Program-made: the position numbers and the translations under genes
From: Patescibacteria group bacterium
GTDB lineage: Bacteria > Patescibacteriota > Kazan-3B-28 > UBA10110
Assembly: GCA_043802665.1 (NCBI GenBank)
Contig: JAZDKW010000020.1
Span: 7,036 to 71,035, forward strand
Direction: 5' to 3'
Length of the DNA stretch: 64,000 nucleotides
Shown: in pieces, positions 7,022 through 50,733 of the stretch
Numbering within the stretch: the first letter of the stretch is position 1
Layout: each line of letters starts with the position of its first letter
The notes under the pieces: model-generated
What the model was told of the DNA's origin: nothing
Database searches by the model: none
The model's input: the letters and a program-made list of their open reading frames with translations, nothing else

Positions 7022-7903
7022 TTATTTATAATACACCCGGTCTAAAATGCGCAGATCAACATACTGGCGAGGATGAGCCCCATCGCGGAGGATTTTAGCC
7101 AGATTATTTAATTGGGTATCCGGACTTTTAGTAGCATCAAAGATAATCTTCCAGCCTTCATTGGTTATAACTTCAACTTCAAAGGTGGTTTCTGGTACTA
7201 CTATCTGTCGCACATTCAAATTGGTTTTGCGAGGAAGATTCGCCGCCACAAAGTTCACAAACTCAATAAAATCGGTGGTTAGAATCTGTTGCTTCAAGCT
7301 CACCGGCACATTCTTTAGATCCTCCACTACGAGTAGCGGGCTATCAGGAGGAGCAATATCATAAACCACACCCGCCCGATTCACCAAAAACTGTTCGTTG
7401 TTGGTACGCCAGATTAAGGACGTTTCATGTTCTTCTATAATAATTTGCAACTGGTGTTGCCAAATATTTTTGTGAAAATCTATTGTCTTGATTTGGGAGA
7501 TAGTCATTGCTTGCCGCATTGCCTTGACCTCATTGAACAACAAAGCATTCACTCCTTTAAACTCTTGCTTAAAAATTGTATCTACAAGGGTCTGGTTGTC
7601 CACTAAACGATTGCCTTGAATATCTAACTGATCTAAGACAAAGAAGTGCGATCCAAACACCCAATAAAAAAGCACGATTAAACCTGCCCCCACCAATGTT
7701 CGGAGCAGTGGTGCGGCTACTGTGCTTAAAGATTTATGCTTAAATTTAGGCGTCCAGGCTAATTTTTTTAGCCGATGTTTGCGGGGTTGGACAAGAGAAG
7801 GTTTAGTCGTATAAAAGCTTACGCAGGGACGAATAGTAGACGCCAGTGCCGGCGGCAATTTTTTTTTGAACACTTTTTCGAAAGCAAATCCCCTCTTTAC
7901 CAT
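7022..7903 (-). CDS. ftsQ: cell division protein FtsQ/DivIB (POTRA domain)
   Basis: 293 aa; basic N-terminus, one TM helix, then POTRA-like beta/alpha region; located directly downstream of murC. Confidence 0.7.
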   Translation of the reverse strand: MVKRGFAFEKVFKKKLPPALASTIRPCVSFYTTKPSLVQPRKHRLKKLAWTPKFKHKSLSTVAAPLLRTLVGAGLIVLFYWVFGSHFFVLDQLDIQGNRLVDNQTLVDTIFKQEFKGVNALLFNEVKAMRQAMTISQIKTIDFHKNIWQHQLQIIIEEHETSLIWRTNNEQFLVNRAGVVYDIAPPDSPLLVVEDLKNVPVSLKQQILTTDFIEFVNFVAANLPRKTNLNVRQIVVPETTFEVEVITNEGWKIIFDATKSPDTQLNNLAKILRDGAHPRQYVDLRILDRVYYK

Positions 7904-7905
7904 AG

Positions 7906-9306
7906 CTAATCGGTTTGGGAATATGCCGAAACAAACTCCTTAATCCAATCACTGTTTTTCCCCGCTCCGAGCGATATAACCACTTCACCTGGTTGCAAGG
8001 CGGCAGACAGATAGTCGCTAATCTCCTGGAAGTCTGAATAAGCCCGAGCATTATGGCTTATTTTATCGATCGCTTCCGCTAAGCGATTGTTGTCAATTGC
8101 TTGGATGTCTTCCTCACTATCTCGCACCGCCAAGATCGGAGCAATTAAGACTTCGTCCGCATCACCAAAACTCTGGGCAAACTCGTTTAACAGAAGTCGC
8201 GTCCGACTATATTGATGAGCCTGAAACACCACTCGAATTTTTCGGCCGCCAAAATAATCCCGGGCAGCCGCAAGGGTCGCCTGGATCTCCGTAGGGTGAT
8301 GTCCATAATCATCCACAAAAGCGACGCCACCAATATTACCTACGATTTCAAACCGGCGATCCGCTCCCTGAAATTTATTCTCCAACACCATTTTAATAAC
8401 AGCATCACTTACTTTTAAGTGTTTAGCTACAGCGATAGCAGCTAAAGCATCCATTACCAGATGTTTACCAGGAAATTTCAACCAAGTCTGGATGCCATCA
8501 ACAGCAAACTTCATCTTGCCATCCTGATAGATGATATCTCTGGCCACTAAATTATTGCCAATCTCCGATGAGGTGGAAAAACCAAATTTAATTACTTTGG
8601 ATTTGGCTTGTGGCAAAATTTCCAAAATATTGGGGTCATCGCCGCAGGCAACGACCAGGCCATCTGTCGGCACTAATTGTAAAAACTGTGCAAATGCTTG
8701 TTTAATTTCATTAATATCTTGATAATAATCCAAGTGATCAGCATCAATGTTAGTAAGGACTGCGATTTTGGGTCGCATATCCAAAAATGCTCGATCATAT
8801 TCACAAGCCTCTATCACCCAATACTCACTCCGACCTAAAATGCCACAGCCTTCCAAGCTTTTTACCTCCGCTCCAATCAAAGCGGTAGGATCCATCCCAG
8901 CCTCCTGCAGAATCAAAGTGATTAACGTGGAGACAGTGGTCTTGCCGTGGGTACCGGACACAGCGATTCCGATTTTATTCTTCATCAACTCGCCAATAAA
9001 TTCGGAACGTTTCCAGGCTGTTCGCCCCATTTTTTTGGCCTGCTCAATCTCTAAATGGACAGTATCCGGCCTCGCCGCGGCAGAAGTATAGATTAGTTCA
9101 TTGATATCCGTTGGAACGTTCTCGGCAATCTGTTCCCCAATTATTACTTTGGCCCCCTTACTCTCCAGACGCTTCCGACCCGGGAAATCCTGAATGTCAC
9201 TGCCCGTAATCCGATTCCCCATACCCAAAAGCACATCGGCAAGTGCCTGCATCCCAATGCCACCGATCCCCACCATAAAATAGTGTTTAGGAGTTACTTT
9301 TTTCAC
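7906..9306 (-). CDS. murC: UDP-N-acetylmuramate--L-alanine ligase
   Basis: 466 aa; Mur ligase P-loop GTHGKTT; N-terminal Rossmann motif GIGGIGMQALA. Confidence 0.9.
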   Translation of the reverse strand: MKKVTPKHYFMVGIGGIGMQALADVLLGMGNRITGSDIQDFPGRKRLESKGAKVIIGEQIAENVPTDINELIYTSAAARPDTVHLEIEQAKKMGRTAWKRSEFIGELMKNKIGIAVSGTHGKTTVSTLITLILQEAGMDPTALIGAEVKSLEGCGILGRSEYWVIEACEYDRAFLDMRPKIAVLTNIDADHLDYYQDINEIKQAFAQFLQLVPTDGLVVACGDDPNILEILPQAKSKVIKFGFSTSSEIGNNLVARDIIYQDGKMKFAVDGIQTWLKFPGKHLVMDALAAIAVAKHLKVSDAVIKMVLENKFQGADRRFEIVGNIGGVAFVDDYGHHPTEIQATLAAARDYFGGRKIRVVFQAHQYSRTRLLLNEFAQSFGDADEVLIAPILAVRDSEEDIQAIDNNRLAEAIDKISHNARAYSDFQEISDYLSAALQPGEVVISLGAGKNSDWIKEFVSAYSQTD

Positions 9307-9350
9307 CCCTCTATTGTATCAAAATCTCCTTACTCCTCTGTTATCATCCC

Positions 9351-9462
9351 ACCCTATTGTCATTCCCGCAGAGGCGAGGATCCAGGCCTGGATCCTGCCT
9401 GCCCGGCCAGGGAATCCGAACTTGGCCTTTGGCCAGTCGGTCCAGGATGACAAAGAAAAACC
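9351..9462. mobile_element. MITE-like element with terminal inverted repeats TGTCATTCC ... GGATGACA and an internal perfect palindrome GGATCCAGGCCTGGATCC
   Basis: Terminal inverted repeats read directly; same inverted-repeat family recurs at >=6 other sites in the window. Confidence 0.45.
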
Positions 9463-9480
9463 CCGCCAGAGATGACAGTA

Positions 9481-10143
9481 TTATGATTTTTCAGCTATTT
9501 CACTGATGACAAATTGTTTGCCCTCATAATCGATCGCATCAGCAGTCAGAGTTCCCCGAATCTCTACCTTAATATCCTTATCAGTGACATCCACAATTTT
9601 GGCTTTAACCCCTGGATCGGCAATTTTATTTTGCATAACTGATTCAATGCCAAAAGTTTCGCCAGTATCGGCAACAAAATAATCATCAAATTGAGCCCCC
9701 TCGGGCGTAGATTTAATTACCCCTATATAAGTTAGTAAGCCATCATCGCCTGGATTGCCGTTGATCGTAACCAAGAACTCATTTGCCACATCGGTTTTAT
9801 CCCAGGGTCGTAGATATTTCATCACGATATGCGACCGTTCCACCTTCAAAACCTTGAAAGTCCAGACTTCTTCGCCTCCTGCACCGACCAGATTTTCCGT
9901 ATTGTATTTATCGGTAACTTGGTATGTATTATCTACCCGTTCCAGCACCCCCGCAGTAATATCCGTCACTTGCCATTGATAACCAGTAGATTGATTGGAC
10001 GGTAAAACAACTTTAAATTGCTGACCTATTGGGAAATCAAAGTTTTGCCGGTGATCCTTAAGAGTAATTTGGGGCAAAGTACTAACTAAAGCACACCCCC
10101 CTGCCAACAAGAGCGGAACTAAGCAAAAGATTAATCTTTTCAT
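9481..10143 (-). CDS. hypothetical exported protein, probable lipoprotein
   Basis: 220 aa; signal peptide ending LLAGGCALVS, which is lipobox-like. Confidence 0.5.
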   Translation of the reverse strand: MKRLIFCLVPLLLAGGCALVSTLPQITLKDHRQNFDFPIGQQFKVVLPSNQSTGYQWQVTDITAGVLERVDNTYQVTDKYNTENLVGAGGEEVWTFKVLKVERSHIVMKYLRPWDKTDVANEFLVTINGNPGDDGLLTYIGVIKSTPEGAQFDDYFVADTGETFGIESVMQNKIADPGVKAKIVDVTDKDIKVEIRGTLTADAIDYEGKQFVISEIAEKS

Positions 10144-10160
10144 AAAACCATCCTTAAAAA

Positions 10161-10433
10161 TTAATTTCTATTCCTCAGTAACAAAATACTAAGTACCAAG
10201 GCAATAGTAAAGAACACTGCCCCCCAGAAACAAGGAGTGACAAAAAGATTAATCAGGGCAGGGCAACTAACCTCAAAGCACTGGGCACCTGTACACGGAT
10301 AACAAATCTGCTGGCTCCGCCAATTTATCACTTCCAAAACAAAGTTCCCCCAAGCAAATAAAGTGCCCAGAAGCAATACCCAAAACTGTGCCCAAATAAT
10401 TTTATTCACCCCGTTAGAGATAGAAAACTTCAT
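10161..10433 (-). CDS. small Cys-rich integral membrane protein
   Basis: 90 aa, three hydrophobic segments, CxxC-like pairs (CYPCTGAQC, SCP). Confidence 0.4.
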   Translation of the reverse strand: MKFSISNGVNKIIWAQFWVLLLGTLFAWGNFVLEVINWRSQQICYPCTGAQCFEVSCPALINLFVTPCFWGAVFFTIALVLSILLLRNRN

Positions 10434-10533
10434 CGTTTTCGTAAGTTAATAATAATTTCTAAATAAAGCTTGATTTAATAATTGATATATAAGTTGGTGA
10501 AAAATAGTTGCTATTGGTTATCTCTAACGGGGT

Positions 10534-10710
10534 TCATTTCCGCCAGTCTTTAATAATTAAATGACGCCCGGCGGCCCGGACAACCAGCTTTTGACGCTCC
10601 TGCCATCCCAGCTTACGCACCACTTCTGCAGGCAAAGTCAGCCCCAAGCTATATTTAGCAATGCGAGTGAGCTTTCTAATATCTTTTTTACCGCTTCTAT
10701 TTCTCGCCAT
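10534..10710 (-). CDS. SpoVT/AbrB-type (MazE-like) swapped-hairpin DNA-binding protein, 58 aa
   Basis: Manual minus-strand translation: MARNRSGKKDIRKLTRIAKYSLGLTLPAEVVRKLGWQERQKLVVRAAGRHLIIKDWRK. This fits the AbrB/MazE fold pattern (LPAEVVRKLGW..G..L). It is below the 60-aa ORF-track cutoff. Confidence 0.5.
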   Translation of the reverse strand: MARNRSGKKDIRKLTRIAKYSLGLTLPAEVVRKLGWQERQKLVVRAAGRHLIIKDWRK

Positions 10711-10714
10711 AATA

Positions 10715-10784
10715 TTACTTACTATATTACTTACTATGTTAAGTAATTATTTAGAACGTTCGACGTTCCTTACGTAATTATTTT
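10715..10784. promoter_or_regulatory. repeat block A: TTACTTACTAT x2, then TAAGTAATTATTTAG, palindrome GAACGTTCGACGTTC and TTACGTAATTATTTT; sits in the promoter region of the AbrB-like gene
   Basis: Read directly; near-identical block B at 12122-12173. Confidence 0.55.
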
Positions 10785-10839
10785 ATCATACAATCATTTA
10801 TCCAAGCCGATTCTGCTCTCCAGCAATAACCCCACCTAA

Positions 10840-10862
10840 CCTCCCCTTATCTTAAGGGGAGG
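10840..10862. repeat. stem-loop CCTCCCCTTAtcTTAAGGGGAGG (copy 1 of 2)
   Basis: Perfect 10-bp inverted repeat; near-identical copy at 15142-15162. Confidence 0.5.
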
Positions 10863-11214
10863 AGATGAGAGAGAAGATTCAACACCCCTCTTAAGACAAA
10901 AGGGCAGGCGGTGCCCCGCACAATTCAATATATATCCAGAGAGGATAAATATCATATTCTGGATGAGACTGAATTGTGCTGGGGGAAAGTTATGATACAT
11001 TTTTACAACAATATAACCCCTGGTCAACGCCTGATATTAACAATCTGAAAATCAACAATAAAACCGCTCTCCAAGCCAAAAATATGCTTGACCAGCCGAA
11101 ATAAATAAGTTATACTGCGGGCAAATTCAGTATTAACTGGATGACCTTTGAAAAGGAGGTCGCTCGAGATGCGACAGATCATTTTTCTTCCAAACAAGAA
11201 CAGAGGTGAAAAAG

Positions 11215-11991
11215 ATGACTGTAAATGAGATGGAAGAAGTATTAACAAAGCACATAGAACGCGTTGAGAGACAGAACAGATGCGCTATGAGAATCGCTTG
11301 GATTCTGGGAGCCACATTAACATTATTACTGGCGCTATTGGTATTATTGGGTGTTTATGTTTATTTAGGACCAACCTGGGAAACTAAAACTATTCGTACG
11401 CAGGCTATTGAAATCTTAGATGAGGATGGGAACTCCCGTATTAAACTCCGCATCTTTGAAGGAGAACCCAGTATTGCTCTCTATAACAAGAATGGGAATA
11501 ATCGTGTCTTACTCACTCTTTTTAAAGGGGAGCCGTGTTTTGCGCTCTATGATGCGATTGGAAGCCAGCGTGCCTTGCTCTCTATCCCTGAAGAAACACC
11601 GGGTTTATGGATTTACGACAAGAATGGAAATTGTCAGGTTGCGCTTGCCACCCCTGAAGAGAAACCTGGTTTATGGCTTTATGATGAGAATGGAAATCAT
11701 CGAGCTGGACTCTCCATCTCTGAAGGAGCACCAGGTCTTGCGCTCTATGATGTAGATGGAAGCCAGCGTGCCTTGCTCACCGTCTCTAAAGGAGAACCTG
11801 GTTTATGGCTTTATGACGAGAATGGAAATCATCGAGCTGGGCTAGAGATACTCTCTAAAGGAAAAGGAACACCTGGTTTATGGCTCTGGGACGAGGATGG
11901 AAATCATCGAGCTGGGCTAGAGATCGCGGAAGGAACACCAGGTTTATGGCTCTGGGACCAATATGGCCATTCTACCTTTAAAACTCCTTAG
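11215..11991 (+). CDS. membrane-anchored protein made of ~8 tandem ~20-aa repeats of the form G(E/T)PGLWLYDxNGNxRAxL (YD-repeat-like)
   Basis: The ORF may start at GTG 11206 or ATG 11215; an AGAGGTGA SD-like sequence lies upstream. It has an N-terminal cytoplasmic segment plus one TM helix. The tandem 60-63-bp repeats are visible at DNA level from 11440 to 11960. Confidence 0.7.
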   Translation: MTVNEMEEVLTKHIERVERQNRCAMRIAWILGATLTLLLALLVLLGVYVYLGPTWETKTIRTQAIEILDEDGNSRIKLRIFEGEPSIALYNKNGNNRVLLTLFKGEPCFALYDAIGSQRALLSIPEETPGLWIYDKNGNCQVALATPEEKPGLWLYDENGNHRAGLSISEGAPGLALYDVDGSQRALLTVSKGEPGLWLYDENGNHRAGLEILSKGKGTPGLWLWDEDGNHRAGLEIAEGTPGLWLWDQYGHSTFKTP

Positions 11992-12121
11992 GAAAGACCG
12001 TGGATGAGAGTGTCCCCTTCCTCGGTAAGTTTCTACCGTACGGTAAAGAATTCAATGCGGACCTAATTTGGTCCGCTTTTCTATTACTAAATATCTTTAC
12101 CTGATTGGGACTAAAAAAAAA

Positions 12122-12173
12122 TTACTTACTGAATTACTTACTATAGTACTTACTACATTACGTAATTATTTAG
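12122..12173. repeat. repeat block B: TTACTTACT x3, then TTACGTAATTATTTAG; direct repeat of block A, overlapping the stop codon of the nuclease gene
   Basis: Read directly. Confidence 0.55.
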
Positions 12174-12921
12174 CTTTGAGTTGGCTGATAGCATTGCGGT
12201 AGGTGCAGAAATCGCATTCGGGACCGGCGGGTGGGATTTTGTCGGACATCAAACAATCTTTAATTTTCTCCAAAGTCGGTGCGATCCAATCAGTGGTACC
12301 CTCATAAGAGATCAGTTTAATCCTGAACTCCAATTTACCGTCAAACGCCTCCCTGTCGCGCTTACCATTGCAATAAACAAAATAGCCTGCCGGCGCTACC
12401 GAAAAACCATTTTGCCGGAAAAGCCATTGATAAATCTCCATCTGACGCTTATAGCCCTTTTGCCACTCGGCGTCTAAGGTAACTTCCTTGTCTTTGCTGG
12501 TCGCCTTGTAATCCACAATGATCAACTCACCTTTCGGGTCCACCCAAACATCGTCTACTCCTCCATAAACCAAAAAATTGGTGACTGGATCCAAATACTG
12601 GATACCGCTCCGAGCATTACGCCAAGTCTCTAAATCTTCATGGGGGAAAGGAACTGCATCTACTCCATACTGTGTCATTAAGGGATGGGGCTGACCTTTG
12701 GCCCGATGGATATCAAATTCTTTCTTCAAGAGATGATCTACAGCCGAGTTCAAAGTAAAAGGATAGCCGGGCGGCTGGCCCACTCCCAGGCGTACATCGA
12801 TATAAAAACAGCGGGGACAATTACAATACAGATCAATTTTGGAGCGACTAATCTTAAACGGATCTGTTGATGCGGGGTCAAATAACCCCCGAGTGCGCTG
12901 ACCATGATAATATTCCGACAT
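12166..12921 (-). CDS. PD-(D/E)XK nuclease, Cas4/RecB-like, with Cys clusters
   Basis: 251 aa; motif ELIIVDYKATS matches the hhDYK(T/S) motif III of RecB-family nucleases. Cys clusters lie at the N-terminus (CNCPRC) and C-terminus (CDFC), as in Cas4-type Fe-S nucleases. No cas genes or CRISPR array lie nearby. Confidence 0.6.
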   Translation of the reverse strand: MSEYYHGQRTRGLFDPASTDPFKISRSKIDLYCNCPRCFYIDVRLGVGQPPGYPFTLNSAVDHLLKKEFDIHRAKGQPHPLMTQYGVDAVPFPHEDLETWRNARSGIQYLDPVTNFLVYGGVDDVWVDPKGELIIVDYKATSKDKEVTLDAEWQKGYKRQMEIYQWLFRQNGFSVAPAGYFVYCNGKRDREAFDGKLEFRIKLISYEGTTDWIAPTLEKIKDCLMSDKIPPAGPECDFCTYRNAISQLKAK

Positions 12922-24906: not shown

Positions 24907-25329
24907 TTAAATGAACAGCTGCTCGACAAGAGTTTCGCTCTCTTTTTCAGTAGATTCTTTGTATTCTTGCCAGACTTTTGCATCCCAAATTTCTATACGA
25001 CTCAAAAGTCCAGCAACAATTATGGCACGATTTAGATTAGCATAATCCATCAAATATTTTGGCAAAATGATCCGACCCTGTTTATCCAGTCCCACTTCCA
25101 TCGCTCCCGCTAAAATTAAACGAGAAAAGGCTCGGGCGCTTTTTTGGGAGATCGGTGTGCTATTTAGCTTATCTACCAATTTTTGCCATTCGGTCAAAGT
25201 ATAAAGGAACAGACAACCATCTAAACCCTTTGTGACAACCGCTCCGCCCGCTAAATCAGCACGGAACTTGATGGGAATTGCCAGCCTACTCTTTTCATCA
25301 ATTGTGTGTGAATACTCGCCAATAAACAT
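24907..25329 (-). CDS. mraZ: transcriptional regulator MraZ
   Basis: 140 aa; duplicated MraZ half-domains; first gene of the dcw cluster. Confidence 0.9.
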   Translation of the reverse strand: MFIGEYSHTIDEKSRLAIPIKFRADLAGGAVVTKGLDGCLFLYTLTEWQKLVDKLNSTPISQKSARAFSRLILAGAMEVGLDKQGRIILPKYLMDYANLNRAIIVAGLLSRIEIWDAKVWQEYKESTEKESETLVEQLFI

Positions 25330-26793: not shown

Positions 26794-26820
26794 TTCTTCC
26801 TCCTTAAGGTGCGACTACTT

Positions 26821-26881
26821 TTTCTCTATCTCCGTCCTAAAGACAGAAACAGGGAGAAAGGCCAATGCGAGAAGCATTGGC
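26821..26881. repeat. structured ~62-nt repeat, copy 1: TTTCTCTATCTC-CGTCCTAAAGACAGAAA-CAGGGAGAAAG-GCCAATGC(gagaa)GCATTGGC
   Basis: Read directly; 4 copies in 1.6 kb. Confidence 0.7.
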
Positions 26882-26905
26882 GGATGAATTTCTGACACAG
26901 GATGA

Positions 26906-27145
26906 TTAGGACTTTATGAATGCATCGTATTCCGGGCGACCGAATAGCTCCACTGTGAGAAAGTTAAAGCCGCCTTTGCAGCTAGGGCAAAGATTTAATT
27001 TAGCTAGCTCCTTATAGAGAACGATCGCTGCTTTTCGTTCCGGACTACCGTTAGGAGCATTCTTGGCGGCACAAAGGATTTTTTTGCCTTTCTCTTGAAG
27101 CTCCGATTTGTGTCCGCAGGTGCACTTATTATTTTTTCCTACCAT
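26906..27145 (-). CDS. small zinc-ribbon-like protein (79 aa; CxC...CxxC)
   Basis: SD GGAGGAGAAACC immediately before the ATG. Confidence 0.55.
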   Translation of the reverse strand: MVGKNNKCTCGHKSELQEKGKKILCAAKNAPNGSPERKAAIVLYKELAKLNLCPSCKGGFNFLTVELFGRPEYDAFIKS

Positions 27146-27385
27146 GGTTTCTCCTCCAGAGAAAACAACAAGGGTTACAAGCCCTTTTGCTGCCGGATCA
27201 CTCGCAGAGATGCGCCTTCAGTAAAGACAATAAGATATATATGGGTGTCAATCCATATACAGAGATTATCGCTTTACCTACTCAACCACATCTGTGTGCC
27301 TGATTAGATCCGATGATACTGGACAAGCAATCCAGTCCCTTTCCAGGGGGTTCTATTTGAATGACTTTATTTTCAAGATACGATT

Positions 27386-27449
27386 CTTTCTCTCTATCTC
27401 AATCGGGTTGATTGGGACAGGGAGAAAGGCCAATGCTTCTTGCATTGGC
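27386..27449. repeat. structured repeat, copy 2: CTTTCTCTCTATCTC-AATCGGGTTGATTGGGA-CAGGGAGAAAG-GCCAATGC(ttctt)GCATTGGC
   Basis: Read directly. Confidence 0.7.
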
Positions 27450-27680
27450 CAGGAGAACTTATGCATGGTCTCTCCTGGTAACCATATAACGGCGCACCGT
27501 CTCACGCCCCATCTATATACGTACAACGTTATTCCGGCTTCTCCATATGGGTTTTTGTTTATTTGTACCCACATGGTGGAACTAACTGTATATACGATGG
27601 ACTTACGATGCACCGTAAGAAGAAACTGGGCCAAATAAAGCAGGGGTTTGCCTGCTTGGATTTTTGATGTGAAAGTACAA

Positions 27681-27744
27681 TCTTTCTCTCTATCTCAATC
27701 GGGTTGATTGGGACAGGGAGAAAGGCCAATGCAAGGCATTGGCG
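27681..27744. repeat. structured repeat, copy 3 (same variant as copy 2; loop AAG)
   Basis: Read directly. Confidence 0.7.
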
Positions 27745-27764
27745 CTGGGAAGAGCAATTAAATT

Positions 27765-28190
27765 TCAAAATGTAGTGTGCTTCGCTTCCGCAATGAGCTC
27801 ATTCTCGCCCGTCATGTCCAACAGCTTGTCAAAGCTATCGGGGAACCCTGTCTGGAATTTAATCCAGTCTTGGGGCATCAGATACACATGACGCCCATCG
27901 TGAGGGTACATCCCGCATTGACCATTGGACATTAGGATAAGGGCTTTTCTAGTGACATCTTCTTCAATCACCTGGATCATGCCTCGGCAATCGAGACAAC
28001 CCTCTCCAGAATCCACGATGACGTAGTCGAGGGATTCGGAAGAAAACACATTTACGCATTCCTCGTGGACTTGAAATCCGAGAAAATTACCTTTGCTACC
28101 AGCGACAGGGCCCCTTATATTGGCAGTGAGTTTTTCCCATTTACCTTCAGGGAATGTCATGGATGCCATGGATGTCATAACTGATTTCAT
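27765..28190 (-). CDS. hypothetical protein (141 aa)
   Basis: SD GGGAGGAGAAAA before the ATG; no recognisable motif. Confidence 0.55.
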   Translation of the reverse strand: MKSVMTSMASMTFPEGKWEKLTANIRGPVAGSKGNFLGFQVHEECVNVFSSESLDYVIVDSGEGCLDCRGMIQVIEEDVTRKALILMSNGQCGMYPHDGRHVYLMPQDWIKFQTGFPDSFDKLLDMTGENELIAEAKHTTF

Positions 28191-28345
28191 TTTTCTCCTC
28201 CCAGAGAAGCTCAGTTTATTTACTGGTCATGAGCTTGACCAGGCCAGCTTATATCCATAAACAGTAATTTAGATGGATATACATGCAAGGCATGTATATC
28301 AGACGTAAGCTGTTATGGAGTGGCATAAATTTTTAAGGAACTATT

Positions 28346-28410
28346 CCTTTCTCTCTATCTCCGTCCTAAAGACAGAAACAGGGAGAAAGGCCAATGCAGA
28401 GTACATTGGC
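28346..28410. repeat. structured repeat, copy 4 (same variant as copy 1; hairpin GCCAATG(cagagta)CATTGGC)
   Basis: Read directly. Confidence 0.7.
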
Positions 28411-31666: not shown

Positions 31667-31783
31667 CCCGTTAGAAGCAGGAAACCTTTAGGTTCCCGAC
31701 GTTTAATAATAAGATATCTGATAATAAATGGGTTATTGAGTAATTCATAGAATTTGATACTGAATAGAGCACTTCTAACGGGA
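31667..31783. repeat. stop-to-start intergenic element 1: left end CCCGTTAGAAGCAGG, right end CACTTCTAACGGGA
   Basis: Exactly fills the gap between the ctpA stop (31788) and the rplI ATG (31666); terminal inverted repeat of 11-12 bp. Confidence 0.7.
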
Positions 31784-34167: not shown

Positions 34168-34287
34168 CCCGTTAGAAGCAGGAAACGCCTTCGTTTCCGT
34201 CGTTTAAAGATAAAGTGGTTAATTGGTTAGTCATGGCACAAGGCATAGCTTTTATTAAGTTGGAATCCTTTGCTGCTTCTAACGGGA
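34168..34287. repeat. stop-to-start intergenic element 2: CCCGTTAGAAGCAGG ... GCTTCTAACGGGA
   Basis: Fills the gap between the ftsX stop (34289) and the envC ATG (34167). Confidence 0.7.
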
Positions 34288-37045: not shown

Positions 37046-37161
37046 CCCGTTAGAAGCAGGGAGCCCAGGGCTCCCGACTGGTTAACAATATAGTATCTGA
37101 TAATAAATTAATAATTAAATAATCCATAGGTTTTATACGTAATGATGTGTTTCTAACGGGA
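37046..37161. repeat. stop-to-start intergenic element 3: CCCGTTAGAAGCAGGG ... GTTTCTAACGGGA
   Basis: Fills the gap between the infC stop (37166) and the prfB ATG (37045). Confidence 0.7.
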
Positions 37162-45592: not shown

Positions 45593-45886
45593 TGGTGCCG
45601 CGGGACGGGATCGGACCGCCGACGCATGCCTCTTCCGAAGCATTTGGACTATCTCATTCTCCATTTAGCAATGGAGATTGGGCGCTAATGTGGGATTATC
45701 GTTGGGACTCACCCACTAGTCTCTACACCTTCCTCGCTATCATATGCCCGGCGAGGCTTGGCTCGGGATTGTCAAACACATGGCGTGTGTTTGGTTTTCC
45801 CCGAATTCACCCAATTTTTCAATCCTAGTTACCTAGGAAAGCCCCGAAGATTCCAGGGCATCGCTCTACCACTGAGCTACCGCGGC
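45593..45886 (-). tRNA. tRNA-Phe(GAA), interrupted between U33 and G34 by a group I intron
   Basis: The 5' exon is 45855-45886, GCCGCGGUAGCUCAGUGGUAGAGCGAUGCCCU. The 3' exon is 45593-45635, GAAGAGGCAUGCGUCGGCGGUCCGAUCCCGUCCCGCGGCACCA. Joined, they give a canonical 75-nt tRNA with anticodon loop CUGAAGA. The T-loop UCCGAUC is atypical. Confidence 0.6.
45636..45854 (-). ncRNA. group I intron (~219 nt) in the tRNA-Phe anticodon loop
   Basis: The 5' exon ends in U and pairs with the intron GGGG (P1). The intron UCUUC pairs with the 3' exon GAAGA (P10). The P7 halves GUAGAGACUAGUG (R-like) and GAGAUAGUCC (S-like, consensus AAGAUAUAGUCC) are present, and the intron ends in G. There is no internal ORF. 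Confidence 0.6.
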
Positions 45887-47202: not shown

Positions 47203-47265
47203 ATCTCTCCCCCTCTTCTGAGTTTGTTACTTCGATAAGATAAAGTAGCAACTTCAGATGAGGGC
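47203..47265 (+). repeat. cassette hairpin element H0 (degenerate): CCCTCTTCTGAGTTTGTTAC ... AACTTCAGATGAGGG
   Basis: Inverted repeat read directly; followed by the conserved CGAATCTTGAAAATT motif. Confidence 0.55.
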
Positions 47266-47394
47266 TTGCTCTCAAAACGAATCTTGAAAATTAAATTCAA
47301 TCCAACTCTTGTAGAGAGCAATTTGGGTATAAATTATTTTCTGAAATGTTCGTATCCAAGTTGCTCTCTAAGAAGAGCAAAGGAGGCATGTCAA

Positions 47395-48588
47395 ATGCCT
47401 AAATTAATTAAGGTCGCCATTGGTGGCCCACCGAAATCCGGCACGACATGCTTTCTTGCCGGGTTATGCGAAAACCTTCCGAGGTTTTCGCGCTATCTCT
47501 TCCGGGCTTGCCCGGACGGAGAGGGAACTTGGACTTACAGGTCCGAGGCCTCTGCCAAGTATCGTCGCAAGGGGCAGTTCGCCCCGGGGCTGGTTGACTG
47601 GTACTGCCAGTCGCTAGCCAAGTGCGTGATGGCCCCGATCGTCCTCGTGGACATCGGTGGCCGTTGCTCTGATGAGAATTCCCGAATCCTTCGCGAAGGC
47701 GGAGTACAATTCGGGATAATCCTTTCCCCATCTCTGGAAGCAATTCCAGAATGGGAGAGATTTTTCCGCTCTTGCGGAGTGGAAGTAATCGCTCGAGTAA
47801 TCAGCGATTACAACGGCACTGATGACATTACTATTGATGCCGACCCGATGGTCGTGCATCATCTTGATCGGGAGGTAAGCGCAGAGGAATTGGCAACTCG
47901 GCCAACCATTCAGAAGGTGGCTGAAATTATTTTGGGGTTGATCGCCCCGGAGGAAACAGAAATGAACATTCTTTCTTCATTGATTACTCCCGACGGGGTC
48001 ATCACGGTTGCCGCTCTTGCGGCCGCCCTCGGTAAGACTGCAGTTGAAAGGGCTTTGCCGAATGGCAAAGTCATCCCCCAGATCGTCTGGGAGGGTGCGG
48101 ACTTGGTCCGCATCGCCGAGCTCCTGCACAACCGCTCGGCAGAAATGCCGGAAGTTGTGAGGATCGACGGCCCCGCTCCGGCGTGGCTCGTTGCGTCGCT
48201 CACTCACGAGTGCCATCCGCGGATGGTGGCATTGAATAGTGCTGACGGATTCGTCAATGTTGGGTGCCGCCGGCCTTCCGGCGGCGGCGAGGGGATCAAC
48301 TTCAAGGTTGAGACCCGTCCCGACGACTGGAAAGTCGTCACATTCGAGCTGGACCCCTCGGTCCCGCTCTCTCCGGCCGATCTTGACCGGATTGCCCCAC
48401 CTGACCTGGGCACCCTTGACTCGAAAGTAGTCCTTTCGGGTCGGGGGCCAAACTGGCTCTTTGCCAGTTTGGCCTTGGCATACCACGGCCGCGCCGGGGC
48501 CGTGGCCCGCTTCCAGCCGGGGACTGGTAGCACGGTCGTCTGGACCCACACTCAGAGTGTGGTACTCGGGGATAATATCCCTGAGTAA
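47395..48588 (+). CDS. P-loop-containing protein of unknown function (cassette gene A)
   Basis: SD AAAGGAGG 7 nt before ATG 47395; the ORF track extends to 47266 but no SD lies there. The N-terminus has a Walker-A-like KVAIGGPPKSGTT. The C-terminal half carries a duplicated motif GPAPAWLVASLTHECH / GRGPNWLFASLALAYHG. GC is ~60%, against ~40% for the window. Confidence 0.6.
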   Translation: MPKLIKVAIGGPPKSGTTCFLAGLCENLPRFSRYLFRACPDGEGTWTYRSEASAKYRRKGQFAPGLVDWYCQSLAKCVMAPIVLVDIGGRCSDENSRILREGGVQFGIILSPSLEAIPEWERFFRSCGVEVIARVISDYNGTDDITIDADPMVVHHLDREVSAEELATRPTIQKVAEIILGLIAPEETEMNILSSLITPDGVITVAALAAALGKTAVERALPNGKVIPQIVWEGADLVRIAELLHNRSAEMPEVVRIDGPAPAWLVASLTHECHPRMVALNSADGFVNVGCRRPSGGGEGINFKVETRPDDWKVVTFELDPSVPLSPADLDRIAPPDLGTLDSKVVLSGRGPNWLFASLALAYHGRAGAVARFQPGTGSTVVWTHTQSVVLGDNIPE

Positions 48589-48627
48589 GAATTGCACATT
48601 TTCAGAGGGAGAGCTTCGTCTCTCCCT

Positions 48628-48799
48628 CCTTCATCCGAGTTCACCATTATTCATTGTCCGTCATTCCGGCCTACGAGCCGGAATCTAGATCCTGAATCGT
48701 ATTAATTATACGATCCTGGACAAAGCCAGGATGACGAAGTAAGGAATACTTCATCAGTTCAGGATGACGCATAAGTAAATGATGAATTCAGATGAGGGA
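48628..48799 (+). repeat. cassette hairpin element H1: CCTTCATCCGAGTTCACC ... AATGATGAATTCAGATGAGGGA, with a ~130-bp MITE nested in its loop
   Basis: Arms read directly. The insert at 48646-48777 has terminal inverted repeats CGTCATTCCGG/CAGGATGACG. The element is preceded by the hairpin GAGGGAGAGcttcgtCTCTCCCTC. Confidence 0.65.
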
Positions 48800-48956
48800 G
48801 AAATCTCTTAACACCGAATCTTGAAAATTGAAAATTATTTCTCTTGTGGAGAGTCACATCCTCACAATCTATTTTGTGATGAGCTGACTCTCCATCAGGA
48901 GAGAAAAATATAGCCGGAATGCCCTGTAAACCGGTCAAGGGGCAAGGAGGCCAAAA

Positions 48957-49766
48957 ATGGCCAAAAAAATATTACGTCTGAATGAAGAGCAGTTTAATCT
49001 GCTCAGGAACGCTGTGCGAGAGAATCAGATTAAACGGGATAAGTTGAAGAGTCGGATGGTAGAAATACTATCCGAACTCAACTCTCTTTGCCGAGGCTTT
49101 ATTTTCTCGGATGGTACTTCTGTTGTGTCAGTTAATTTCTATGCTTTCTGGTCTTTTTCGACCGGGAGATGGAATTGCGAGGATCTGGGGTATAAGTCGG
49201 GTTTTCCGACTATCCCCCAGCGCGACAAGCGTTGGCCGGAGTTGACTGTTGCCGTGCCGGAACTGTCGGCATTAATGACGGAGTATGAGTTAAACAAGAA
49301 GGCAATGGGGGAAATTGCACATCTCACCATCGCGCCTCAGTACAGGAAAGTGCGAGGGTACTATGAAGTTGACTCAACAGAGTGGGATCGTCTTGTAGAT
49401 AGCCCCAACACCTCTTCTGGATTTTTCTGGGAAACGGAAGAAAGCGGGGGAGGCATGACAAACACCGGCTATAGCCAGGTTGTTTGTCTTCTGAGCGGTA
49501 ATCCCGCAATTGCATATTGTCTTGGACATCACGCAAATGATGTGCATGCGCGGTTCCGGTTCAGGTCCAAGTTCAGGTGGATTGAAGTTCGTGTTAAACG
49601 CTATCGGGAATCAGTTGAGATATCTGGTTGCGAAATGCCGAGTGGGGAAGAAATCTTTTATGCCACATGCATCGAAGAAGTTCCAGAATTTCTTCTGGAC
49701 GCCACCAAAGCGGCGATGGCCAAGGCAGATGATTATCACTGCCGGAAACCATATTTCATTTTTTGA
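48957..49766 (+). CDS. hypothetical protein (cassette gene B, 269 aa)
   Basis: SD AAGGAGG before the ATG; no recognisable motif. Confidence 0.6.
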   Translation: MAKKILRLNEEQFNLLRNAVRENQIKRDKLKSRMVEILSELNSLCRGFIFSDGTSVVSVNFYAFWSFSTGRWNCEDLGYKSGFPTIPQRDKRWPELTVAVPELSALMTEYELNKKAMGEIAHLTIAPQYRKVRGYYEVDSTEWDRLVDSPNTSSGFFWETEESGGGMTNTGYSQVVCLLSGNPAIAYCLGHHANDVHARFRFRSKFRWIEVRVKRYRESVEISGCEMPSGEEIFYATCIEEVPEFLLDATKAAMAKADDYHCRKPYFIF

Positions 49767-49795
49767 CCACCTTGTTCTTTCTTGGGTAATAAGAC

Positions 49796-49860
49796 GGGGG
49801 CCTTACGGCCCCCCTTTCATCTGAGTTTACCATCTGTAAATGATGAATTCAGATGAGGGA
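49796..49860 (+). repeat. terminator-like hairpin GGGGGCCTTACGGCCCCC followed by cassette hairpin H2 (CCTTTCATCTGAGTTTACC ... TGAATTCAGATGAGGGA)
   Basis: Read directly. Confidence 0.65.
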
Positions 49861-49913
49861 ATCATCTCTCAAATTTTCTCGGCAAAATGCCGAAATGAAC
49901 CTTGAGGTGTAAC

Positions 49914-50171
49914 ATGGCTGTTGGTAAGTGGACCACTACTGTTATCGGAGTATATTGGGACAAAATGATCGACGGTATAGCTGAGGAATTTGTCTATAGG
50001 CTATACAAAGAGTTATCTGCCGAAGAGATCAATATACTTGTAGATGAGGCGTTCAAAAATATGTCTCTTTTGCCACCACAACTTGCAGATTGTATAAAAG
50101 CAACGGTTGTTGAAATGAAGAACCGAAAACCGATAATTGCTTATCCTCCTACCACGGGAGAATCTGGATAG
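49914..50171 (+). CDS. hypothetical small protein (cassette gene C, ~85 aa)
   Basis: SD GAGGTG before ATG 49914; the ORF track starts at 49902. Confidence 0.5.
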   Translation: MAVGKWTTTVIGVYWDKMIDGIAEEFVYRLYKELSAEEINILVDEAFKNMSLLPPQLADCIKATVVEMKNRKPIIAYPPTTGESG

Positions 50172-50177
50172 ATTCTC

Positions 50178-50245
50178 CCCCTTCATCCGAGTTCAGCATT
50201 CGGCAAGCTCATGACAGAGCACGAATAATGAATTCAGATGAGGGG
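50178..50245 (+). repeat. cassette hairpin H3: CCCTTCATCCGAGTTCAGCAT-(27 nt)-AATGAATTCAGATGAGGGG
   Basis: Read directly. Confidence 0.65.
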
Positions 50246-50287
50246 CAACTCTCAATTCGAAATTTGAAAATACAAGGAGGCACGAAA

Positions 50288-50572
50288 ATGCCGAAAAAGC
50301 CATGGTTCATTAAGATTTTATGCTACGGGATGATTATCGGGAGCATAGCATTGATTGTTGTTATGCTCTCGAGTGGTTTCTATTCTGAACTATTCATTTC
50401 CCCAGCGGAGTCACGCTGGTGGTGGGTGCTAATTAACCCAACACCAGAAGCTATTGATCACGGGACACTGTGGATGTGGGTGCTTGCAGTGTTCCCAGTT
50501 GTGACGGCGATACTTGGGGTTCTGGGTTTGGGTCGTTGCTCCCTCGGGGCATCATCCCCCTTGGTCTCTTAG
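50288..50572 (+). CDS. small two-TM membrane protein (cassette gene D, ~94 aa)
   Basis: SD AAGGAGG before ATG 50288; the upstream part of the ORF-track version just translates hairpin H3. Confidence 0.55.
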   Translation: MPKKPWFIKILCYGMIIGSIALIVVMLSSGFYSELFISPAESRWWWVLINPTPEAIDHGTLWMWVLAVFPVVTAILGVLGLGRCSLGASSPLVS

Positions 50573-50607
50573 CTCTCTGCTATCCTCTTTGTTCTTTTGT
50601 GGATACA

Positions 50608-50673
50608 CGGGGGCCTTACGGCCCCCCCTTCATCCGAGTTCAGCATCTACAAATGATGAATTCAGATGAGGGA
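50608..50673 (+). repeat. terminator-like hairpin CGGGGGCCTTACGGCCCCC followed by cassette hairpin H4 (CCTTCATCCGAGTTCAGCAT-tacaaa-TGATGAATTCAGATGAGGGA)
   Basis: Read directly. Confidence 0.65.
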
Positions 50674-50733
50674 GATAAGCACGCAAAAAATATAATAAAG
50701 AATATAATAAAAATAGATTAACAAATAGTCGGT

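Follow-up and report, generated by a model that had tools for sequence, protein, structure and literature searches.

Two nearly identical repeat blocks enclose a single gene at a point where a bacterial cell-division cluster is interrupted, which raises the question of whether they are regulatory sites or the scars of an inserted module. The blocks lie in a stretch of 64,000 nucleotides (nt) from a Patescibacteria group bacterium (contig JAZDKW010000020.1, assembly GCA_043802665.1), hereafter the window. Block A (10714-10784) is located directly ahead of the gene for a 58-residue protein, here called AbrB58, and block B (12121-12173) overlaps the end of a nuclease gene. Judged from comparative sequence analysis, block A is probably a sigma-70-type promoter combined with the operator array of AbrB58, a putative minimal repressor with the AbrB fold, and block B is probably a second copy that resulted from an insertion. 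Loci of relatives used for comparison are designated by L and a number.

Tandem boxes ahead of the AbrB58 gene

A repeat search of the window returned a common stretch of 41 nt with 90% identity between the two blocks (10714-10754 and 12133-12173) and a register-shifted extra copy of the same single family at 12121-12161, with no further site in the 64 kb. The original prediction that two near-identical blocks flank the enclosed repeat-protein gene was therefore correct. Tandem Repeats Finder counted 2.5 copies of a 12-nt tandem unit at 10712-10741 and 3.6 copies at 12119-12161. Both blocks are made up of 12-nt units (AGTAAGTAAT on the gene strand), of which block B has three and block A two, together with AAATAATTAC(G/T)TAA boxes. 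TAMGTAATTATTT, with up to one mismatch allowed, was found four times in the window, as was TTACTTACT, and every occurrence falls within blocks A and B; about 0.4 occurrences of each were expected and none of 100 shuffles reached four. The core TTACGTAA occurs at positions 10770 and 12158 only.

Block A and its promoter (10714-10804, minus strand) were delimited by direct reading, a promoter scan, Tandem Repeats Finder and alignment of orthologues; the genes neighbouring the blocks are all on the minus strand. The predicted -35 element is TGGATA (10804-10799) and the predicted -10 element is AATAAT (10782-10777), which overlaps an extended -10 TGATAAAAT (10788-10780). These are followed by a distal box AAAATAATTACGTAAGG (10784-10768), a hairpin palindrome (10768-10754), a proximal box CTAAATAATTACTTAA (10754-10739) and two 12-nt units AGTAAGTAAT (10735-10726 and 10723-10714), and a gap of 3 nt separates the end of the block from the ATG at 10710. 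Read on the minus strand the block is TGATAAAATAATTACGTAAGG, AACGTCGAACGTTC, TAAATAATTACTTAAC, ATAGTAAGTAAT, ATAGTAAGTAAT, ATT, ATG. With the -35 and -10 elements placed at 10804-10777, the boxes therefore span the region from the -10 element to the start codon, and transcription is predicted to begin near 10770. Block A had been described as the promoter of the 58-residue gene, and both the predicted promoter elements and the conservation of the block in orthologues agree with this. The palindrome had been called perfect; its 6-nt arms (GAACGT/ACGTTC) do match but are separated by a 3-nt centre, and the AAATAATTAC(G/T)TAA box occurs twice in block A, once on either side of it.

In the alignment, block A was observed to be conserved upstream of the orthologous AbrB58 gene in all the relatives with a division and cell wall (dcw) cluster context, where the flanks differ. 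The orthologue consensus is TGnTAAAATAATTAyGTAAGG, then AATTACGTAATT, then one to four copies of AAGTAAGTAATT directly before the AbrB58 ATG. The same arrangement was found across the family, as the 60 nt ahead of AbrB58 homologues nearly always contain two to four boxes at 12-nt spacing. For 64 upstream regions, all non-identical and taken from unrelated contexts, the self-similarity was 0.465 at lag 12 compared with 0.28 in controls, and 12 was the top lag in 45 of them. The core of the box varies between AbrB58 subfamilies and was observed to follow the loop after the conserved RKLT motif. As an example, the cores TTACGTAA, ATACGTAT and GTAAGTAA (the ACGTA/AAGTA type, with a TACGTA core) accompany the loop RKLTRxxxxS(I/L)G, whereas TCAGTAA (TCAGTA) accompanies RKLT(K/R)MGxGxS and TCATGA accompanies RKLSKVANGNS. 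In the window and in the 86 loci searched for it, no site of the block motif was found other than those at AbrB58 promoters and the copies after the nuclease gene. A fixed position, a fixed period and a core that tracks the protein form the usual signature of an autoregulatory operator, and the earlier suggestion that the blocks are operators of the AbrB-like regulator thus gains strong comparative support, while the small regulon that had been proposed with it was not seen in these loci.

Two likenesses within and beside block A were considered and set aside. TTATGTAA resembles by eye the XerD arm of a dif site; it is one variant of the 12-nt box, varies with the AbrB58 subfamily, and is accompanied by neither a XerC arm nor the pattern of a 6-nt centre. 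TTGGATAAA, which is located upstream of block A in the window and in L084, might have been a shared cassette end but is more likely a -35 element, because L176 carries TTAGAT at the same offset. The palindrome GAACGTC(G/A)(A/G)ACGTTC belongs to a short insertion (19 nt) within the operator block that is common to the window (10754-10768), L087 (about 1015-1035) and L176 (118-135). On its flanks are a 7-nt duplication (TAAGGAA) in L087 and the duplicated AAATAATTAC box in the window. In L087 the promoter part is also represented by two incomplete copies, which lie about 80 nt from each other. The operator block seems prone to small duplicative insertions.

AbrB58 (10534-10710, minus strand) is the first gene of the sub-operon AbrB58-orf90-I42-murC-ftsQ-like. 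Its best Pfam match, PF04014 (MazE_antitoxin), scored 20.2 bits (E 5.7e-4) against a gathering cut-off of 24.7 bits, and several homologues have precomputed matches to the same family. A profile search of the PDB gave the N-domain of B. subtilis AbrB as the top match (E 0.16). The AlphaFold2 model, which is of the monomer (pLDDT 75), has a beta-beta-alpha-beta-beta fold with strands at 13-18, 21-25, 42-47 and 50-55 and a helix at 28-34; the best Foldseek matches to it were MazE (probability 0.96), AbrB-N, VapB, SpoVT and Sso7c4, with E-values of only 0.1 to 5. These signals are weak but consistent, and they suggest that AbrB58 belongs to the AbrB/MazE/SpoVT fold group, as had been predicted. 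In the model, nothing follows the last strand of the DNA-binding domain, so AbrB58 is without a toxin-binding tail. Pfam scans matched the downstream genes orf90, I42 and murC to no toxin family and AbrB58 itself to no MraZ domain (PF02381). That AbrB58 binds DNA is suggested by the co-variation of the boxes with the protein.

A profile search of 1.84 billion representatives gathered the AbrB58 family into 491 clusters at 50% identity, with nearly all members 55-65 residues long. A metagenome scan with the family alignment found 368 relatives, and the loci of 80 of them were fetched for comparison. The family was found outside dcw clusters too, and the genes behind its members are highly varied: judged by eye from N-terminal sequences, they include methyltransferase-like, large (915-929 residues) restriction-enzyme-like, DUF3800, RadC, MazG, GlyRS and other genes. 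We found no phage or viral carriage of the family, as no relatives were on viral contigs, and no paper in the literature that connects AbrB with Patescibacteria. The AbrB58 gene in the window has no Shine-Dalgarno sequence, and in relatives its stop overlaps the start of the next gene as ATGA.

The second block and a slot with changing contents

Block B (12121-12173, minus strand) consists of a box CTAAATAATTACGTAAT and three 12-nt units, followed by a run of nine T. On the minus strand it reads (nuclease ...GCT AAA TAA)TTACGTAATG, TAGTAAGTACTA, TAGTAAGTAATTC, AGTAAGTAAT, T9. The first bases of the block are the final two nuclease codons and the stop, so the overlap with the stop codon (12166-12168) noted earlier is real. 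The promoter scan called no promoter in block B, where a good -35 element is lacking. The position of the block relative to the nuclease stop is that of the single block in L092, a relative with an empty site.

Comparison with relatives identified the DNA between the blocks (10785-12120) as a lineage-specific insert whose gene is read on the plus strand. Its contents are an unassigned, hairpin-bearing stretch of about 300 nt, a predicted promoter of its own, TTGACC-17-TATACT (11088-11116), a gene for a 258-residue repeat protein (11215-11991) and a predicted terminator (12057-12076). This is the sole plus-strand gene in more than 25 kb, and its likelier start is the ATG at 11215, which has a Shine-Dalgarno-like GAGGTG ahead of it, rather than the GTG at 11206. 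The G+C content of the insert (0.42-0.48) is not foreign compared with that of the flanks (0.40-0.48). We found no Pfam match to degraded genes in 10785-11205 or 12068-12202 at E-values up to 1, no known RNA family in 10350-12250 or in L100, and no terminal inverted repeats at the insert ends in the repeat list. The ORFs (open reading frames) of the slot and of its neighbours in the window include no recombinase, transposase, integrase or Xer-type gene.

The repeat protein has an N-terminal transmembrane helix followed by 22-residue beta-hairpin repeats, and its AlphaFold2 model (pLDDT 89) contains the helix and 18 strands. Foldseek matched the model to engineered single-layer sheets of OspA and to Rhs/YD/teneurin shells (E 2e-7 to 1e-4), whereas no RHS or YD repeat model in Pfam or NCBIfam matched the sequence. 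The description of this protein as YD-like therefore stands for the hairpin-repeat sheet and not for a sequence match. With 258 residues the protein falls far short of the length that a closed shell would need, and it lacks a toxin domain. Only 30 distant homologues were found, with no curated Pfam match and two sub-threshold ones.

The part that varies among relatives was observed to be the slot that follows the nuclease stop and precedes the AbrB58 block. It is empty in L092 and L099, where a single block separates the nuclease stop from the ATG. In L081, L082/83, L087/88/96 and L003/102/103 it holds a pair of small same-strand ORFs, which are paralogous, and a terminator, and in L100 a non-coding stretch of about 590 nt (369-957). 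An opposite-strand gene is present in the window, in L084-86 and L098 (a multi-helix-turn-helix protein of 309-314 residues) and in L090, L091 and L097 (a polytopic membrane protein of 170-188 residues), whereas L037 is without AbrB58 altogether. No DNA is shared between the cargoes beyond the blocks. The cargo of L084-86 is flanked by an independent block duplicate of 43 nt (43/43 nt, 100%), with one copy right after the nuclease stop and the other ahead of AbrB58, as in the window. On a small scale, the junction of the nuclease and AbrB58 genes is a hot spot of accessory genes. Of the inserted module originally suggested, the part that holds is the repeat-protein gene alone, since relatives have either one block and no cargo or another cargo; the larger 9.3-15.6 kb block is not part of the insertion.

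Some of these cargoes have features of their own. The slot in L100 has no convincing ORF, no Rfam match and no copy of the block after the nuclease stop. The multi-helix-turn-helix cargo (L084 1116-2060 and L086 454-1383, both on the minus strand) has three to four tandem helix-turn-helix modules (HTH_24, E 3.7e-10) and a C-terminus, CETPHCLNPWH, that looks HNH-like by eye and has no Pfam match. It may be a free-standing homing-type endonuclease, i.e. a selfish gene in the same slot.

Block B and the proximal part of block A both carry the window-specific TAAATAATTAC, and block B retains the ACGTAAT and TAGTAAGTACTATAGTAAGTAAT stretches as in the close relative L176. These shared features therefore point to a duplication within this lineage, with block A having probably changed more since. 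The homology between the blocks ends at the block edges, and none was found upstream beside those edges. A remnant of AbrB58 after block B or after the nuclease-side copy of L084 was sought and is unsupported, as local alignments were no better than those of shuffles (59/500 and 124/300).

Second copies of the local operator were also found 0.3-3.8 kb away in unrelated AbrB58 loci (L136 3953-7850; L138 105-3670; L093 3061-3970; L118 3020-4177; L163 1346-2984; L168 596-1470), in three arrangements. The second copy lies ahead of a second AbrB58 paralogue in L118 and L163, ahead of a truncated AbrB58 start (MATRKLKL*) in L168, and at the 3' end of AbrB58-led operons in L136, L138 and L093. In L136 and L138 the copies bracket whole AbrB58-led restriction-modification operons; the end copy of L138 adjoins a tRNA gene, and two tRNA genes are located just upstream of the AbrB58 operator in L136. 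Such operator-bracketed units are a recurring pattern that might reflect cassette-type recombination, recombination between operator copies, or a selected second site acting as a loop or roadblock.

Operator, recombination site or RNA element

We propose that AbrB58 oligomers would bind the boxes TTACGTAA and (A)GTAAGTAA(T), which are 12 bp apart and would extend over the transcription start, from the -10 element as far as the start codon. Such binding would throttle transcription of AbrB58 itself and of orf90, I42, murC and the ftsQ-like gene; in relatives the genes behind AbrB58 are translationally coupled to it. AbrB58 would thus be a second, local controller for the distal half of the split dcw cluster, with MraZ at the head of the proximal half. 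In the presumed ancestral layout, the nuclease stop was directly followed by one block and then by AbrB58. A self-contained gene on the opposite strand, with its own promoter and terminator, would then have entered the intergenic block in this lineage and left the operator array on either side, with block B as the resulting second copy. With its boxes intact and no good promoter, block B may be a passive leftover or an additional AbrB58 site.

Several points weigh against this proposal. A duplication of 41-53 nt at insertion fits no standard mechanism, with no recombinase or transposase nearby, and we know of no transposition mechanism that duplicates 41-53 nt. The second copy is not found in every insertion state, being absent in L100 and decayed on the nuclease side in L090 and L091, and the copies at the 3' ends of AbrB58-led operons in L136, L138 and L093 hint at a function or a mechanism beyond a passive leftover. 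The Pfam and PDB sequence matches of AbrB58 to AbrB and MazE are under curated thresholds, and the co-variation of box and protein, from which we infer the binding of AbrB58 to the boxes, could partly stem from shared descent. The search for further sites in this genome covered about 64 kb. In addition, the lack of a Shine-Dalgarno sequence and the location of the boxes in the 5' untranslated region leave room for a role at the RNA level.

The most serious competitor is also compatible with the proposal. Block B might be a working second operator that forms a loop with block A and silences the enclosed gene, blocks nuclease read-through antisense to the insert gene, or controls an antisense transcript, which would amount to a small regulon of two blocks. 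Block B keeps four near-consensus boxes and is nearer to the family consensus than the proximal block A, the nuclease gene has no terminator before it, and paired copies bracket transcription units in the unrelated loci L093, L136 and L138. However, the decay and absence in L090/L091 and L100 show that a second copy is not generally maintained, no promoter was predicted at block B, the promoter of the insert gene is about 300 nt from block A, and the duplicates may simply be young, so we hold this role possible but doubtful. Alternatively, the blocks could be primarily att-like recombination sites at which block-bearing single-gene cassettes integrate through a trans-acting recombinase, in the style of integron cassettes or dif/Xer modules, leaving one block per side. 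The slot has at least six different contents and a single block where it is empty, two independent cargoes have near-perfect flanking duplicates limited to the block, the boxes are partly palindromic, and in L136 and L138, next to tRNA genes, operator copies surround restriction-modification operons. An att scar, as originally suggested, is thus a possibility, but no integrase, transposase or Xer-type gene was found in or beside the insert, the cargoes have no terminal sequences in common, the insert of L100 has no second copy, and no relatives are on viral contigs. The box also tracks the AbrB58 subfamily and is always at the AbrB58 start, which fits an operator better, and we regard the att-like reading as unlikely.

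An intermediate idea, which we consider rather improbable, is that the operator array also serves as an insertion site marked by a bound protein: foreign units of one gene each would be inserted at the borders of arrays bound by AbrB58 and duplicate the array, much as the repeat is duplicated when a CRISPR spacer integrates, or operator-bracketed units would excise and re-integrate through recombination between operators. If true, it would mean a recombinase-free swapping of accessory genes at regulator-defined hot spots in genome-reduced Patescibacteria and would account for the operator copies around AbrB58-led restriction-modification operons elsewhere. The repeats could also act on the RNA, either as an A/U-rich, Shine-Dalgarno-independent enhancer of translation or as stops in three frames that end upstream translation. 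The units are located between the predicted -10 element and the ATG of a gene without a Shine-Dalgarno sequence, and TAAGTAAGTAA stops all three frames and is directly 3' of the nuclease ORF in the empty-site layout. This is very improbable, as other subfamilies keep the 12-nt spacing with boxes that contain no stop codons (TCATGA, TCAGTAAC), the cores form pairs of palindromic half-sites such as are typical of DNA operators, and the boxes co-vary with a protein loop. Finally, the top Pfam match to MazE_antitoxin and the stop/start overlap with the next gene resemble a type II toxin-antitoxin operon in which AbrB58 would be the antitoxin, orf90 the toxin and the blocks its operator. We find this hardly credible, since AbrB58 has no toxin-binding tail, orf90 is missing from most relatives, where AbrB58 is coupled straight to I42, and the downstream genes are very diverse across the family. 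An AbrB58 promoter with an operator array that was duplicated by an insertion is therefore the reading we prefer.

The surrounding cluster and related systems

The window contains a complete dcw cluster on the minus strand. Its proximal part comprises mraZ (24907-25329), which is a genuine MraZ (E 2.3e-37), rsmH, ftsI, a Mur ligase gene, mraY, murD, ftsW and murG, and its distal part murC, an ftsQ-like gene and dnaX. They are separated by genes for a Gmad2-like protein, truB, Germane, orf147, DUF378 and the PD-(D/E)XK nuclease, the plus-strand gene, AbrB58, orf90 and the I42 inhibitor. The backbone murG-Gmad2-truB-Germane-x-DUF378-nuclease-[slot]-AbrB58-I42-murC was found in all the relatives recovered (L081, L082/L083, L084-L086, L003, L037, L090-L092 and L099). 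The interruption is therefore a trait of the lineage and not part of the repeat-bounded insertion, and this also applies to the 9.3-15.6 kb cluster break noted earlier. Of the two findings that together would have refuted the original prediction, a gene order shared throughout the lineage was observed, whereas the blocks proved to be present in the orthologous loci of relatives rather than missing from them.

According to the ORF list and Pfam scans, AbrB58 is followed on the minus strand by orf90, a small cysteine-rich membrane protein (10433-10161), a chagasin-type I42 inhibitor lipoprotein (10143-9481), MurC (9306-7906) and an FtsQ-like protein (7903-7022), and the order downstream of AbrB58 (7022-10433) is the same in relatives. 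As orf90 is absent in most of them, AbrB58 is coupled there directly to I42. The repeat search also found a 126-nt inverted-repeat element with perfect 15-nt arms (10408-10533, minus strand) at the former ATGA overlap of AbrB58 and orf90, so that the window and L176 read TGA[element]TGA and orf90 gains a new start context. The element is present in L176 and absent in L087, L003 and L100.

The nuclease (12166-12921, minus strand; PF12705, PDDEXK_1, E 1.5e-11) is a backbone gene and not a cargo. It has at least 8000 homologues, with the best 120 at 64-100% identity, and occurs, in varied contexts, in at least 579 Patescibacteria genomes at species level. Among the best 80 of the loci from these genomes (L001-L080) the identity is 60-75%, and the neighbours are unlike those of the window in 78 of the 80. 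Residues C35, C38, C236, C239, D123/124, E132, D137-x-K139, Q160 and Y164 are invariant, so both the PD-(D/E)XK core and a cluster of four cysteines are present, the latter arranged as 2+2. The cysteine pattern of Cas4, in contrast, is 1+3. The nuclease scored 35.6 bits against the Cas4 model TIGR00372 (cut-off 65) and 18.6 against PF01930 (cut-off 22.7), and the PADLOC models of Cas4 gave E-values of only about 1e-9. No cas genes were found among the window neighbours scanned against Pfam or in L081-L086, no CRISPR-like array in repeat searches of the whole window, and no matching solved structure by sequence search. By these comparisons the nuclease appears to be a conserved housekeeping-type enzyme rather than the orphan Cas4-like nuclease of the original prediction, and its family is a candidate core enzyme of Patescibacteria. 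Its pairing with the repeat protein, which had been called unusual, was found in this window only and is accidental.

Other repeats and RNA features were observed elsewhere in the window. A family of inverted repeats of about 115-125 nt (CCCGTTAGA...TCTAACGGG) has four copies in the 64 kb (10410-10531, 31667-31782, 34168-34286 and 37046-37160), with none expected, and further copies in L176 (369-489) and L063 (11487-11604 and 17022-17142); the element between AbrB58 and orf90 is one of the four. In the three cases that we compared with ORF coordinates, the copies at 10.4, 31.7 and 34.2 kb, the element takes up the gap between consecutive minus-strand genes. The TGA of the upstream gene is located just before one arm, and the GGG(A/G)TG at the end of the other arm provides the start codon of the downstream gene. 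The pairing of an inner GC hairpin is kept although its sequence differs in each copy, and the family looks like either a miniature inverted-repeat transposable element of the ERIC/Correia type or an intercistronic RNA structure. Furthermore, a group I intron of about 240 nt (Rfam Intron_gpI, 66 bits, 45626-45864) interrupts a tRNA-Phe(GAA) gene at about 45598-45886 (minus strand) after U33. The exons of the tRNA gene, GCCGCGGTAGCTCAGTGGTAGAGCGATGCCCT and GAAGAGGCATGCG...CCGCGGCACCA, were read by eye, and ARAGORN made no call of this tRNA. Two further families of dispersed repeats were found at 26804-28410 and 47253-50685, one with four copies of a 52-78-nt unit (TCTTTCTCTCTATCTC...GGGAGAAAGGCCAATGC...GCATTGGC) and the other with several copies of CCTTCATCCGAGTTCA...AATTCAGATGAGGG and an inverted repeat inside.

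Among known systems, AbrB58 with its tandem operators most likely represents a small autoregulated repressor of a known general type, as far as comparison of sequences can tell. MraZ, which belongs to the AbrB-related fold superfamily, is encoded at the head of the cell-division and cell-wall operon that it controls. The site of MraZ in Mollicutes is (AAAGTGKN3)3, a set of direct repeats at its own promoter (PMC5282649), and AbrB58 also heads murC-ftsQ with tandem boxes ahead of it. However, MraZ has about 150 residues and two PF02381 domains, whereas AbrB58 is a single domain of 58 residues with other boxes and a 12-nt period. In the controller (C) proteins of restriction-modification systems, such as HsdC of Mycoplasma gallisepticum, and in MraZ as well, direct repeats extend over the -10 element and the transcription start (PMC5282649), for C proteins at the promoter of their own operon. 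C proteins, like AbrB58 as proposed here, are small autoregulators encoded by the leading cistron, and many AbrB58 homologues precede the methyltransferase-like and 915-929-residue restriction-enzyme-like genes recognised by eye. They differ in having a helix-turn-helix rather than the swapped-hairpin AbrB fold and in controlling restriction-modification systems, whereas cell-envelope genes follow AbrB58 in the window.

The N-domains of AbrB, MazE, VapB and SpoVT, with about 50 residues and a beta-beta-alpha-beta-beta fold, are the best matches of AbrB58 in sequence and structure. As a rule, the members of this group regulate themselves through operators at their own promoters; AbrB58 differs from them by the lack of a C-terminal oligomerisation or toxin-binding domain and of a toxin partner. 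B. subtilis AbrB is known for the absence of a clear consensus site, whereas the boxes of AbrB58 are sharply defined and periodic. Integron cassettes, dif/Xer modules and att-flanked islets share with the slot one conserved site, varied single-gene cargoes, flanking direct repeats and one-copy empty sites. The insert in the window, in contrast, has no recombinase, its repeat is probably the operator of the neighbouring regulator, and the slot cargoes have no common recombination element, each having its own promoter and terminator.

For annotation, the 'Cas4-like' gene is a conserved backbone gene and not a defence orphan, and the split of the dcw cluster is lineage-wide. Very few recognisable regulators are found in Patescibacteria, and the AbrB58 family appears to be a portable, self-regulating leader gene for many operons, with murC-ftsQ behind it here and restriction-modification and other genes elsewhere. 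Sharply defined boxes with a 12-bp period that vary with one protein loop are unusual for the AbrB fold, whose rules of DNA recognition are poorly understood, and the AbrB58 family could serve as a simple model for the DNA recognition code of this fold.

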